Below, in pieces: positions 11,179 through 15,426 of a stretch of 64,000 nucleotides of DNA; position 1 is the stretch's first letter; every line of letters starts with the position of its first letter. The stretch lies in IMG/VR virus record IMGVR_UViG_3300042471_000650, positions 14,321 to 78,320 of that record; one strand, given 5' to 3'. Below the pieces are notes generated by a model that was not told the DNA's origin, searched no databases, and worked only from the letters and a program-made list of their open reading frames with translations. The DNA comes from a virus. A program made the position numbers and the translations under genes.

Positions 11179-11213
11179 ATTATAGCAAAAAAGGAGAGTT
11201 TATGCAACTCTCC
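11179..11213 (-). terminator. Intrinsic terminator overlapping a sigma70-like promoter (TTGCAT-17-TATAAT)
   Basis: GGAGAGTT-loop-AACTCTCC-TTTTTT on the minus strand. Confidence 0.75.
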
Positions 11214-11239
11214 CTTTAGTATATAACGGAGTTGCGCTT

Positions 11240-11339
11240 CTCCAGGTTGCTCGCCACTTGCCCTTTGACTGGAGGCAAGAAACCAGGCGGGGTTTCCCCA
11301 TCCGCACCACTTACTTTTTAATGGGAAAGCAAGAAACCA
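11240..11339 (-). ncRNA. wcaG-like structured RNA (two hairpin-UGGYG pseudoknot modules)
   Basis: Two TGGTTTCTTGC-stem-loop-TGGYG repeats with loop/downstream complementarity (UCCCAU/AUGGGG, CUCCAG/CUGGAG); lies upstream of gmd/fcl, as expected for the cyanophage wcaG motif. Confidence 0.7.
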
Positions 11340-11481
11340 AATACTTATACCACAAAATATCATAAAAATAGTAAAGTAGAAATAACCCAATATTTAAAAT
11401 AATTGATGTTGCAATTCCAGTAAATAATGAAGTGAACAAGATTGCAATTATTCTAAATCCTACTGCTTTAAAAAACAACAT
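11311..11481 (-). CDS. 56-aa membrane protein (DUF2061-like), not in the ORF track
   Basis: MLFFKAVGFRIIAILFTSLFTGIATSIILNIGLFLLYYFYDILWYKYLVSCFPIKK; ATG 5 nt after the upstream stop. Confidence 0.7.
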   Translation of the reverse strand: MLFFKAVGFRIIAILFTSLFTGIATSIILNIGLFLLYYFYDILWYKYLVSCFPIKK

Positions 11482-11486
11482 AGATT

Positions 11487-11987
11487 TTAATTTTTTGGTG
11501 GCATACTTGAGAAAAAGGTAAGTGTCATCCTACTGTTTTCTTTATTATCACCAAATAAATCGGTTGGTCCATGCATATTTCTTGCATTGTAGAAAATCAT
11601 TCTATTGAACACATTTTCTACAGATGATAGTAGATTGCGGTTATCATCATAAAATGATGTTCCAGTATTGGAAGGTGGGTTTGGTGTGAGATACACTAAC
11701 CCAGCATAATCGCAAAAATCAGGATGTACTTTCCATTGATGAAAATCATATGGACAAGTCCATTTATTCTTTTCTAGAGAATATCTAAAAACAAAATAAA
11801 ACCTTTCAATTTCTTTAGATTCACTAACGCAATTATGAATCATATTAGTAAACTTATTTGAAAGATTTTCATCAGTTACATAATGTGTATATCCCAGAAA
11901 AGGATCTTCAAAATATTCAGATTTAAGAGAAATGTCTCTTATTTCATCCGGATATTGGAAAAAATTTTCTACTATTTTAACGTTCAT
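11487..11987 (-). CDS. 2OG-Fe(II) oxygenase-like protein (DUF6445-like)
   Basis: HPD...AGLVYLTP...GTSFY...NRMIFY...H...R facial-triad pattern. Confidence 0.75.
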   Translation of the reverse strand: MNVKIVENFFQYPDEIRDISLKSEYFEDPFLGYTHYVTDENLSNKFTNMIHNCVSESKEIERFYFVFRYSLEKNKWTCPYDFHQWKVHPDFCDYAGLVYLTPNPPSNTGTSFYDDNRNLLSSVENVFNRMIFYNARNMHGPTDLFGDNKENSRMTLTFFSSMPPKN

Positions 11988-12013
11988 AAGAGGGGGTCTT
12001 TTGGTTCCACCAC

Positions 12014-12253
12014 CTAGTTTACCGACAAACTAGGAAAGGTTAGTTGAATGAGTTTTGGAACTTCAATTGCGGCATAGAAACCACAAAGAATGAGAATGTC
12101 CCAAAACTTATACTTGATTGCAAATGGAATGACAAAAGCATTTCCAACACATTTTACAAGTAATCCAACTCTGGGATCTCCCCATAAAAGGACAAAGTAT
12201 CCTGATAAGAGAAGAATGTTTCCAATGTATCTTGATACATCAGTATTTTTCAT
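12014..12253 (-). CDS. Small membrane protein
   Basis: Hydrophobic 79-aa ORF from MKNTDV. Confidence 0.7.
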   Translation of the reverse strand: MKNTDVSRYIGNILLLSGYFVLLWGDPRVGLLVKCVGNAFVIPFAIKYKFWDILILCGFYAAIEVPKLIQLTFPSLSVN

Positions 12254-12278
12254 AAGGGTTTGCTCCCGACCAGTACTT

Positions 12279-12548
12279 TTAGAGACTCTCCGTGTCTTCA
12301 TCATCTCCTTTCACATAAGCAGGAACCCTATCAGGATCTAACCAGCAAGTATAAGAAAAATCCTCCATTGCAGTCATAAGTTGCATTTCATTGTCCAAAA
12401 GATACATATCTCGGTATCTTCCAGTATATGAGTCTACTTTCTGAATGCGATAGTCAGGTTTGCCATTGATTTCTAGAATGCCGCATTGAATATAGCGATA
12501 TGGAAACCGCTCAAGAAGAACGGTTGGTTTCCTAACAACTTTCATCAA
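12279..12548 (-). CDS. Conserved cyanophage hypothetical protein
   Basis: 89-aa ORF coupled to the upstream gene. Confidence 0.75.
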   Translation of the reverse strand: MMKVVRKPTVLLERFPYRYIQCGILEINGKPDYRIQKVDSYTGRYRDMYLLDNEMQLMTAMEDFSYTCWLDPDRVPAYVKGDDEDTESL

Positions 12549-12760
12549 GCAACCTCTACAGTTTCAAGATCTTGAGCGACATACTCCATAAGCATTTCAT
12601 AGTCGTCCAGAGGGTCACCCGAAAATACAACCCCTACATTTTCATAGTAGCGGCGCACCTTTTTATAAAGTTTCGGATTCTTTACATCAAGGTAGATTTC
12701 CCCGTTAGCAGCAAGACGAAGAGTGCTAACATCTTTCTTGAATTTTGAGATCAGAGACAT
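12545..12760 (-). CDS. Conserved cyanophage hypothetical protein
   Basis: 71-aa ORF directly downstream of a consensus promoter. Confidence 0.75.
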   Translation of the reverse strand: MSLISKFKKDVSTLRLAANGEIYLDVKNPKLYKKVRRYYENVGVVFSGDPLDDYEMLMEYVAQDLETVEVA

Positions 12761-12783: not shown

Positions 12784-12836
12784 ATTATAAGGTGTTTGAG
12801 ACTTTATGTCAAGTGTGCCAGTGAAGAAACTGGCAA
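12784..12836 (-). promoter_or_regulatory. sigma70 promoter TTGACA-17-TATAAT with upstream 22-bp palindrome
   Basis: Perfect consensus; GTGCCAGT-N6-ACTGGCAA at 12815-12836. Confidence 0.85.
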
Positions 12837-12908
12837 TCCAGAAGGTTGGGATCGAACCAACGTCTTCACCGCCCCAAACGGTGCCGTCTACCGCTGACTT
12901 ACTCCTGG
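12837..12908 (-). tRNA. tRNA-Pro(TGG)
   Basis: Cloverleaf: CCAGGAG/CTTCTGG acceptor stem, CACCG-TTTGGGG-CGGTG anticodon arm, TTCGATC T-loop; own TTGACA-17-TATAAT promoter at about 12939-12967. Confidence 0.92.
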
Positions 12909-13029
12909 TTACACCGTTATTTAGTTCGGTGTATAAGCATTATACCCATAACGGGCGGAACTGTCAAGCACATCCCAATGATAAAGAGTCCTATCGGACT
13001 ATTCAATATAGTTTCTACAATATGAAAAA

Positions 13030-14083: not shown

Positions 14084-15426
14084 AGTTCTGCGCTCCATCC
14101 TAGATATGCAGCAGTATTTGCTGCAACAGCATAAGTTGAATTACCCGCAGTTAATCCACCTGAAACAGTAAAAGCTGTTTCTCCGTACCATAATCCAGCT
14201 ATATTATATGATGGTACGGCAGTGCAAACAATACCCGACCCAACAGAGTTAAAAATTTGATAATGACTTGCAGTTCCACTTTGTTCTACACTAGTGGGAA
14301 CAGTTCGCATTTCCACTGGAAAAGGAGTTACTGCAATCGCTCCGTTAGAAGCATATGCAAATCCTGAGGTAGATAATCTAGAATTTGAGATATCACGTTT
14401 TACACGATAGTAATACCGCTGACACAATGCCAGTTCTTGTCCATAACTTCTTCTCTCAAACGGGGTAGCAACGGTTCCTGCTTCTAGTTGAACTCCAGTG
14501 ATTTGCCAAGTTCTACCAGCAGTTCCCATAATATTAGTTGTTCCACTTGCTCCTCTATTTGCAGCAGCTCCATTAAACCAAGTATTGAAAGAAGTGGTGG
14601 TTGAAGCTCCACCACCGTCTCCTAAATGCCAATATACTCTCATCCATCCATTGATTCCGTTATCATCAACAATTCCATAACTCGTATCACCAACAAAAGT
14701 CATAGTTTTATATTCCCAAGTATTAGTTGAGTTAACTGTGTATGTAACATTGTTCCATCTTTCTTGAACACCATCATAATGTGTCATATTAACTGTATAA
14801 AGACCGGCAACACTCGCCTTTACCCAAAAAGATAACGTAACAGGACTAGCAGATGAAGTTCCCCATTTTAAATCGCTAACATTAAATCCTTCAATTCTTT
14901 GATGAAATGCCCCCCAATTAGTTGTGCCTCCAAAAGTTGTAGACCCAGCTGTATATTTTACCGAACTAATAAATCCTACGGGAGCATCAGCAACTCTTTG
15001 TATTGATCCTGCATTTGATGAAACGGATTGTTCAAAAGAAAATCTATCCACTGGAAATGTATTAGAAGATGTGGTGACGTTAACGCTTGCCCCAGCATTT
15101 CTTTGATCAATTCTAAAATCTCCATTAATAATTCTATTCCTTGCACCAGAAAGAGGACCGTCATTTACTGAACCAATATAAGCAGTAGTAATACCAGCTG
15201 TTGTTACACCTACAATACTTGTTGCTCTTAAAGTTGTAACAGTAGAAACTCCACTACTATTAACGTTGCCATTAACATTACCAGTTACATTCCCAACAAA
15301 CCCACTCGCAGTAACAATACCAGTTGCATTTAAGTTCGTTACAGCAGACAATTCGGCACCACTGACGGTCAAGGCACCATCAATCGCTGTAATAGTATCA
15401 GTATTTCCGTTTATCTGAATACCCAT
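14080..15426 (-). CDS. Tail fibre / receptor-binding-like protein
   Basis: Gly/Thr-rich N-terminus, RNRIINGDFRIDQR and ITGVQLEAGTVATPFERRSYGQELALCQRYY motifs; late promoter TATAAATA at 15448-15455. Confidence 0.8.
   Translation of the reverse strand: MGIQINGNTDTITAIDGALTVSGAELSAVTNLNATGIVTASGFVGNVTGNVNGNVNSSGVSTVTTLRATSIVGVTTAGITTAYIGSVNDGPLSGARNRIINGDFRIDQRNAGASVNVTTSSNTFPVDRFSFEQSVSSNAGSIQRVADAPVGFISSVKYTAGSTTFGGTTNWGAFHQRIEGFNVSDLKWGTSSASPVTLSFWVKASVAGLYTVNMTHYDGVQERWNNVTYTVNSTNTWEYKTMTFVGDTSYGIVDDNGINGWMRVYWHLGDGGGASTTTSFNTWFNGAAANRGASGTTNIMGTAGRTWQITGVQLEAGTVATPFERRSYGQELALCQRYYYRVKRDISNSRLSTSGFAYASNGAIAVTPFPVEMRTVPTSVEQSGTASHYQIFNSVGSGIVCTAVPSYNIAGLWYGETAFTVSGGLTAGNSTYAVAANTAAYLGWSAEL

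Follow-up and report, generated by a model that had tools for sequence, protein, structure and literature searches.

The closest described relative of the locus reported here is the wcaG RNA, which was published as a motif of 98 nucleotides (nt) with two copies of UGGYG and was read as a cis-regulator in the 5′ untranslated region (5′-UTR) (Weinberg et al. 2010, PMC2864571). Since 2010 it has stayed an orphan among riboswitch candidates, and mentions of it were found only in the original survey and in two genome papers. We analysed a 64,000-nt stretch of viral DNA (IMG/VR record IMGVR_UViG_3300042471_000650, positions 14,321 to 78,320; hereafter the window), a fragment of a T4-like cyanomyovirus from lake water whose closest isolate is Synechococcus phage S-SRM01 (84% identity across the aligning parts, 71% of the query). 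An earlier note had described four hairpin-UGGYG modules, A to D, set between small genes on the minus strand of this window, and all four were found there at positions that agree with it to ~3 nt. Modules C and D together are a canonical wcaG RNA. Modules A and B are members of two conserved companion families beyond the curated wcaG family. The curated 98-nt motif is the tail of a larger ordered array, two of whose unit types were previously undescribed.

The locus resembles the published wcaG RNA in that C and D have two hairpins, each with UGGYG, a central GC hairpin and the same pseudoknot between flank and loop, and in its cyanophage context upstream of polysaccharide genes. However, the RNA here forms the 3′ end of an array, usually of four units, two types of which lie outside Rfam; genes are nested between the units, and a terminator with its own promoter follows. 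This context and the terminator with its own promoter make the picture of a 5′-UTR ligand sensor less likely. Protein binding at multiple sites, or RNA processing, can now be tested directly in cultured phage-host pairs (such as those of S-SRM01, S-SM2 or SynMITS9220M01).

The locus can also be compared with the PeSLs, the composite promoter-terminator motifs reported for T4-type phages (by Arbiol in 2010, among others). The element that follows module D has this composition, with a terminator hairpin, a -35 box over its 5′ arm and loop, and a -10 box past the U run, and it falls under the PeSL definition; modules A to D do not. As at PeSLs, short conserved non-coding motifs mark the boundaries of the gene insertions and deletions that distinguish close relatives. 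PeSLs occur as many near-identical copies across hyperplastic regions, whereas the hairpin-UGGYG units are confined to a single locus, differ from one another, keep a fixed order and covary at the level of RNA. PeSLs are reported to mediate gene shuffling in other T4-type phages (Comeau 2014, PMC4122927), and a text search of that paper did not find the word 'cyanophage'. The present array is a concrete cyanomyovirus case in which conserved non-coding RNA units mark the sites where small accessory genes are gained and lost.

Identity and structure of the four modules

Three covariance models were built from other phages only, namely R1, a single-module model of 118 canonical wcaG hairpins, R2, a model of 98 A-type elements, and R3, a model of 47 B-type elements. 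The Rfam wcaG model (RF01761, gathering score 42 bits) matches C and D together over its full length (model positions 1-98) at 91.2 bits. The two are therefore halves of one known RNA and not two separate finds. When R1 was run on the window, D scored 52.4 and C 46.1 bits; B was the third best match in the 64 kb (14.7 bits, E ~0.13), and there was no match at A. The same model scores B-type units of other genomes at 25 to 31 bits. R3 detects B at 48.4 bits (E ~1e-10), with module C as the runner-up at 15.9 bits. R2 detects A at 57.4 bits (E ~2e-24), the next match reaching 5.9 bits, and A is unique both in the window and in the 78-kb record. Neither module therefore lies at background. At E values of up to 10, no match of A or B to any Rfam family, wcaG included, was obtained. 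By its R1 scores, B is a relative of the wcaG hairpins. Module A had been taken for a weaker match of the same hairpin, but it is a distinct and well conserved type that has only the UAAAAG-UGGYG part in common with them. Within one genome the four modules share little besides UGGYG.

The features of the locus are given below in the order in which they lie on the minus strand, which is the gene strand and carries all units. Open reading frames (ORFs) are described by their length in amino acids (aa).

12784..12812, minus: predicted sigma-70-type promoter TTGACA-17-TATAAT (12/12 in a consensus scan), putative head of the array-bearing transcription unit
12545..12760, minus: 71-aa ORF (cluster w71, from the ORF list), the unit's conserved first gene, found upstream of most arrays
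12279..12548, minus: gp206-like 89-aa ORF (cluster w88, phrog_481), with its stop codon within module A
12249..12306, minus: module A, S-type (R2), AGAC-ACGGAGA-GUCU, UAAAAG, UGGUC, tail GGGAGCAAACCC, then ATG 12253
12014..12253, minus: 79-aa hydrophobic ORF (cluster w96, phrog_2318) between A and B, start ATG 12253-12251
11985..12043, minus: module B, H-type (R3), UUUC, 8-bp hairpin CCUAGUUU/AAACUAGG, UGGUG, diverged tail GAACCAAAAGACCCCCUCUU, then ATG 11987
11487..11987, minus: 166-aa ORF in the B-C slot, DUF6445 or 2-oxoglutarate (2OG) oxygenase-like (Pfam PF20043, 28.5 bits; phrog_1644)
11311..11481, minus: 56-aa hydrophobic ORF in the B-C slot (from the ORF list)
11243..11341, minus: canonical wcaG RNA, made up of C, D and the central hairpin (RF01761)
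11305-11343, minus: module C (R1)
11252-11289, minus: module D (R1)
11179..11214, minus: composite terminator/promoter, hairpin GGGAGAGUU-GCAUA-AACUCUCC, U run, TTGCAT-17-TATAAT (read from the sequence and by scan)

H-type units (B, C and D) consist of 3-4 flank bases, UUUC, an AU-rich stem of 7 to 8 bp, a loop whose first bases pair with the 5′ flank, AAAG, the 3′ arm and UGGYG. S-type units (A) have a 4 to 5-bp stem (AGUC/GACU or AGAC/GUCU), a 7-nt YGGR loop, UWUAAMAG, 3-5 further bases and UGGUC or UGGUG. Across the alignments UGGYG (UGGUC in A) is invariant and single-stranded. The tails that follow it are G-rich and then C-rich, and can be sorted into T1 (GGGAG..CCCCUU), T2 (GAGUCA..GACCC), T3 (CGGAUGGG..CCCGCC, the wcaG central hairpin) and T4 (WGCMUG); most form small hairpins, 87 to 96% of them folding with a minimum free energy (MFE) <= -3 kcal/mol. 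Hairpin and tail types combine freely, and S1, S2, S3, H2, H3 and H4 were all seen. At two loci (L332:1990-2110 and L191) the T3 tail UGGUG-CGGAUGGGG, which normally stands behind wcaG hairpin 1, comes after an S-type hairpin instead, showing that hairpin type and tail type can be recombined.

Compensatory and G-U changes in the stems reveal selection at the level of RNA. Over the 118 module sequences the H stem is paired in 98.9% of cases, with changes on both sides at six of its seven pairs and frequent G-U, and three of the four flank:loop pairs also have changes on both sides. The stem of B is 95.7% paired, with 4 compensatory pairs across phages. For the S stem, compensatory AU/CG and UA/AU exchanges were found by direct pair counting; RNAalifold predicted no structure on the S-type alignment. 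The MFE fold of a gene-free array has z = -2.2, which is not decisive. Unit lengths vary by 1 to 2 nt between phages, which makes a conserved reading frame unlikely. The idea that the modules are themselves coding was rejected, as the ORFs of cluster w64 that span units group only through RNA conservation. A pairing of YGG in the S-type loop with CC before UGGU was also dropped, there being no consistent pairing in the alignment.

The pseudoknot that is conserved is the one between loop and 5′ flank. It can form in 43/45 distinct D-type sequences (CCUGG:CCAG) and in the window both at D (CUGG:CCAG) and at C (UGG:CCA), and a pseudoknot line is already present in the original wcaG alignment (Weinberg 2010, PMC2864571). 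Pairing of the loops with sequence just downstream, as the earlier note had proposed, is not conserved: D-type loops could pair within the next 30 nt in 11 of 45 sequences, where 13 were expected from shuffles. The loops of B-type units are mostly 3 nt long, so that the proposed pseudoknot cannot form there.

Each of modules A, B and C does contain the stop codon of the ORF that comes before it; in B and in C the sequence runs stop-G-UGGUG. The hairpin of B encodes the final codons and the stop of the 79-aa ORF, and wcaG hairpin 1 encodes the 3′ end and stop of the 56-aa ORF. Nested ORFs begin immediately past the C-rich end of a tail. A missing Shine-Dalgarno sequence had been reported for both A and B; this is true of B only, as A has GGGAG 9 nt ahead of the ATG. 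Across A-type tails, GGAG is found 9 to 12 nt ahead of the nested gene's ATG in 33 contexts.

Array order and nested genes across phages

About 100 wcaG-bearing viral contigs were retrieved with a DNA pattern and their upstream flanks were then inspected, most of which contain elements closely resembling A and B of the window and arranged as there; arrays were counted over 92 distinct arrays on viral contigs. Sixty-four of the 92 contain four units. The usual order is that of the window, i.e. the gp206-like gene, an A-type unit, the 79-aa gene, a B-type unit, C, D and the composite terminator/promoter. The commonest type (S1, 79-aa gene, H2, H3, H4; 25 arrays plus minor variants) is the layout of the window minus the insert, with w96 filling the same A-B slot. 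Four units with no gene between any of them were seen in 14 arrays, and at least 20 of the 92 are complete arrays without an ORF between modules. Some arrays have three or five units, and module number ranges from 2 to 5. A second locus search, seeded with the S-type pattern alone, returned 84 new loci, of which 74 contain H-type units; 6 of the 10 others are cut contigs. Fifth units were seen at L021, L056, L067, L099 and L115, where hairpin 2 is followed by UGGUG-GAUCCAAAUGACCCC, UUCCGUGUGG and a UUUC hairpin with UGGCG; these fifth units precede a GC-rich terminator-like hairpin.

The linker slots are either empty or hold w96, c10, c19, c49 or w166, the last with or without w56. Between unit 2 and H3, other phages carry the unrelated genes c10 (63 to 80 aa), c19 (~70 aa) or c49 (~245 aa). 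The B-C slot is empty in S-SRM01, B being directly followed by C, and in the window and in L331 (98% protein identity) it holds the DUF6445-like gene and the 56-aa ORF. L332 (86%) has the DUF6445-like gene in the slot without the 56-aa ORF, and an S-type hairpin stands ahead of the T3 tail. A homologue of the 56-aa ORF lies directly upstream of hairpin 1 in L099. The 79-aa and 56-aa membrane ORFs themselves have no significant similarity to each other in a test for paralogy. One RNA-library contig of a relative joins a B tail to a C-type hairpin. The RNA-library (metatranscriptome) contigs come mostly from relatives and are thus no evidence that this phage is transcribed, nor do they show starts, ends or strand; they cover the wcaG RNA, A and the upstream genes, and none falls on 11378-11947. 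A literature search for cyanophage transcript maps yielded nothing usable on the array locus.

In five complete or near-complete cyanomyovirus genomes (178 to 241 kb) the units are found at one locus only and in largely fixed order, and the window's own 78-kb record also has a single locus. Relatives do differ in the ORFs and in the number of modules between the gp206-like gene and the C-D pair, as the earlier note had expected. Its picture of a repeatable junction element with exchangeable genes fits the comparative pattern well; the mechanisms it proposed fare worse, as set out below. A scan of bacterial and archaeal genomes with the wcaG pattern returned at least 120 stretches; among the matches listed all were chance matches lacking a second hairpin, and the scan is uninformative on hosts.

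At five loci an S-type unit begins 1 to 3 nt past the 3′ end of a tRNA gene for Ile, Met or Arg, the loci being as follows.

L043:3915-3988: S-type unit abutting a tRNA gene
L106:3071-3145: S-type unit abutting a tRNA gene
L117:4060-4132: S-type unit abutting a tRNA gene
L121:3062-3135: S-type unit abutting a tRNA gene
L015:11674-11749: S-type unit abutting a tRNA gene

An array can thus belong to a precursor that also contains tRNA. In the window a tRNA gene (12837-12908) adjoins the promoter at 12784..12812 on its upstream side, and a further perfect TTGACA-17-TATAAT is present just upstream of this tRNA gene, at 12939-12967 on the minus strand.

The terminator/promoter behind the array

The terminator part of the composite element, hairpin plus U run, occupies 11187-11214, with U7 if the last stem base is included (TTTTTT). 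TTGCAT covers the 5′ arm and loop of the terminator, and a perfect TATAAT lies 17 nt downstream. A glycosyltransferase-like gene and a GDP-mannose dehydratase gene follow. An intrinsic terminator was found <= 95 nt from the last UGGCG in 72/87 distinct downstream flanks, and 62 of these 72 (62/87 overall) have TTGCAT, TTGACA or a near variant at the loop region together with a TATAAT-like -10. The search patterns for composites were TT[GA]NNN for the -35 and TANNNT, 16 to 18 nt later, for the -10; only two composites were found by scan in the 64-kb window. At some loci an ORF begins directly after the last unit, without a terminator. The composite places the downstream glycan genes under their own promoter and the wcaG RNA at the 3′ end of the upstream unit. 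Terminator stems covary and change freely in sequence, whereas the units are constant. L331 differs wholly from the window in the spacer that separates module D from the terminator (11229-11235; L331:2240-2290), despite the 98%-identical DUF6445-like protein, and this spacer seems to turn over fast.

Possible functions of the array

The identity of the array and its evolutionary behaviour are well supported, and its function can be read from them only conditionally. We lean, somewhat short of calling it probable, towards a reading in which the four modules form one modular RNA that offers repeated docking sites for a single factor and also provides homology anchors. The extended wcaG RNA would make up the distal part of a small-gene operon transcript on the gene strand, which would run from the promoter predicted near 12812 as far as the terminator at about 11190. 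Each unit comprises a structured piece (an S-type YGGR-loop hairpin, or an H-type hairpin/pseudoknot framed by UUUC and AAAG), UGGYG and a tail, and the hairpin-UGGYG parts would dock one RNA-binding factor of phage or host. Since UGGYG lies 15 to 25 nt before a nested start codon, and in A-type tails just before GGAG, a bound factor could make the unit a translational operator; it would also gather protein at the transcript's 3′ end. Units of different phages are almost identical and could hence act as passive homology anchors, and ordinary homologous recombination in co-infected cells would then add, remove and exchange the linker genes.

Short invariant single-stranded motifs beside variable hairpins are also found in sponges of the CsrB/RsmZ type and in the operators bound by MS2 coat protein and by T4 RegA and gp32. 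As in those systems, repeat number varies and some repeats overlap ribosome-binding regions, and the S-type loops CACGGAUG resemble the GGA-in-loop of a CsrA site. Unlike the sponges, the present motif is UGGYG and not GGA, the units are interleaved with coding genes, and the binder is only postulated. The motif's discoverers remarked that the two UGGYG copies are possible sites for a dimeric protein (Weinberg 2010 supplement, PMC2864571), and the docking-site reading that we favour extends this remark.

Several points weigh against it. No binding factor was identified, and the two conserved upstream proteins have confident structure models with no recognisable RNA-binding fold. The model of the gp206-like protein (w88; pLDDT 82) has four strands and two helices, and that of the 71-aa protein (w71; pLDDT 92) is a helical bundle. 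Neither has a Foldseek match at E <= 0.001, a VIA-align search made for w88 only gave no PDB match at Z >= 5, and a PDB sequence search gave no match. Weak PC4-like and Sm-like structure rows for the upstream proteins were not counted as evidence. Moreover, units can lie 250 to 700 nt apart with coding sequence between them, a spacing that speaks against a single oligomer binding cooperatively. The tail of B in the window lacks GGAG and is almost unstructured (-0.4 kcal/mol), so that A suits the operator idea better than B does. The ends of the transcript and the timing of expression are predicted only, and small pseudoknots of the H type whose unpaired bases are conserved are typical of ligand aptamers as well.

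Among the alternatives, RNA processing and then tandem aptamers are possible, ahead of antitermination and recombination at the DNA level, with re-initiation unlikely. The units might punctuate the transcript as RNase recognition or protection sites, which would cut a precursor or stabilise a 3′ end. Their placement between cistrons and at the 3′ end of the transcription unit would suit this, as would the S-type hairpins 1 to 3 nt past tRNA 3′ ends, and contigs from relatives' RNA libraries pile up over A and wcaG, a weak indication; such contigs cannot show ends at the level of reads. However, the strict conservation of UGGYG and of the loop motifs exceeds what simple protective hairpins need, and we consider this role rather unlikely.

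Tandem ligand-sensing aptamers, forming a riboswitch that controls read-through of the terminator into the glycan/GDP-fucose genes, seem to us unlikely. This would agree with the listing of wcaG as a riboswitch candidate, with the H units being compact pseudoknots with invariant unpaired bases, and with the terminator behind the last unit in 72/87 flanks. In the window GCAACUC (11229-11235) could even pair with the 5′ arm and loop of the terminator. However, this heptamer is missing from the spacer of L331. Complementarity between the last unit plus spacer and either terminator arm over 72 loci is 4.2 nt, which equals the shuffled controls (4.0 and 3.8 nt), and there is no conserved antiterminator. 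The terminator stems vary freely next to constant units, and the downstream genes have their own -35 and -10 inside the terminator element in 62/87 flanks, the window included. Moreover, S-type units and units ahead of nested genes are unlike the layout of an aptamer with its expression platform.

A primary role in DNA, in which the modules would be the recombination sites of a cassette system, PeSL-like or integron-like, for the shuffling of small genes, is improbable. It would account for gene content changing exactly at unit boundaries between relatives and for the PeSL-like composite at the end of the array. As in attC arrays of integrons, short structured repeats separate small, exchangeable and promoter-poor genes. 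However, a Pfam search that covered the six ORFs of the transcription unit found no integrase or other recombinase family among them. Unit type depends on the position in the array (S1, S2/H2, H3, H4), and units are kept where cassettes are absent, complete cassette-free arrays being common. The units of one genome differ from one another and are thus not interchangeable recombination sites. The G-U pairs and strand-specific structure show selection on RNA, here on the transcript strand. The integron-like cassette array that the earlier note had suggested is not supported, nor is a dispersed recombination system, the modules being restricted to a single locus, with no dispersed copies, and lying in largely fixed order in the five cyanomyovirus genomes.

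Processive antitermination, in which the array would modify RNA polymerase for terminator read-through in the manner of EAR or put RNAs, is more doubtful still. The position just upstream of the terminator is constant and the downstream genes are often polysaccharide-related; the epsC/EAR motif of the same 2010 survey reportedly proved to be a processive antitermination element, which was counted in favour. Against this, an Rfam search found no sequence similarity to known antiterminator RNAs, some loci have an ORF directly after the last unit and no terminator, and the downstream genes have their own promoter.

By analogy with T-box leaders, in which a UGGN bulge pairs with the 3′ NCCA end of tRNA, the array could conceivably be a multi-site tRNA-docking RNA whose UGGY pairs with the 3′ RCCA of uncharged tRNAs. 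UGGY is invariant, unpaired and complementary to RCCA over 4 nt, its Y would match purine discriminators, and S-type units abut tRNA genes; we nevertheless regard this as a long shot. If it were true, a transcript in or beside the phage tRNA cluster could sense or sequester tRNA 3′ ends during infection, and tRNA sensing would be coupled to the expression of the nested and downstream genes.

Least likely is the termination/re-initiation signal of the earlier note, by which a ribosome stopped in a hairpin would be retained by UGGYG and restart at the next ATG: in the window it would be suited by the stops that A, B and C contain and by the ATG that follows A and B within 16 to 25 nt, but ORF-free arrays are common (at least 20/92), A-type hairpins stand directly behind tRNA genes, where the stop lies with respect to the unit differs from phage to phage, and the 3′ end of 16S rRNA is not consistently complementary to UGGYG, of which only GGUG would pair. 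The ORF-free arrays and the units after tRNA genes make the stop codons inside the modules incidental.

Two further observations concern the starts of nested genes. In S-SRM01 (L001:2340-2380) the ATG of the 79-aa ORF is replaced by ATA; in-frame GTG and TTG codons come a few codons further on, and no coding sequence is annotated there in the deposited record. At c10 loci (e.g. L002:2100-2150) the sequence AAAAACUAAAUAA precedes c10, which is nested after unit 2. This sequence resembles the CTAAATA-type late promoter that has been reported for T4-like cyanophages, and some nested genes may bring their own promoter.

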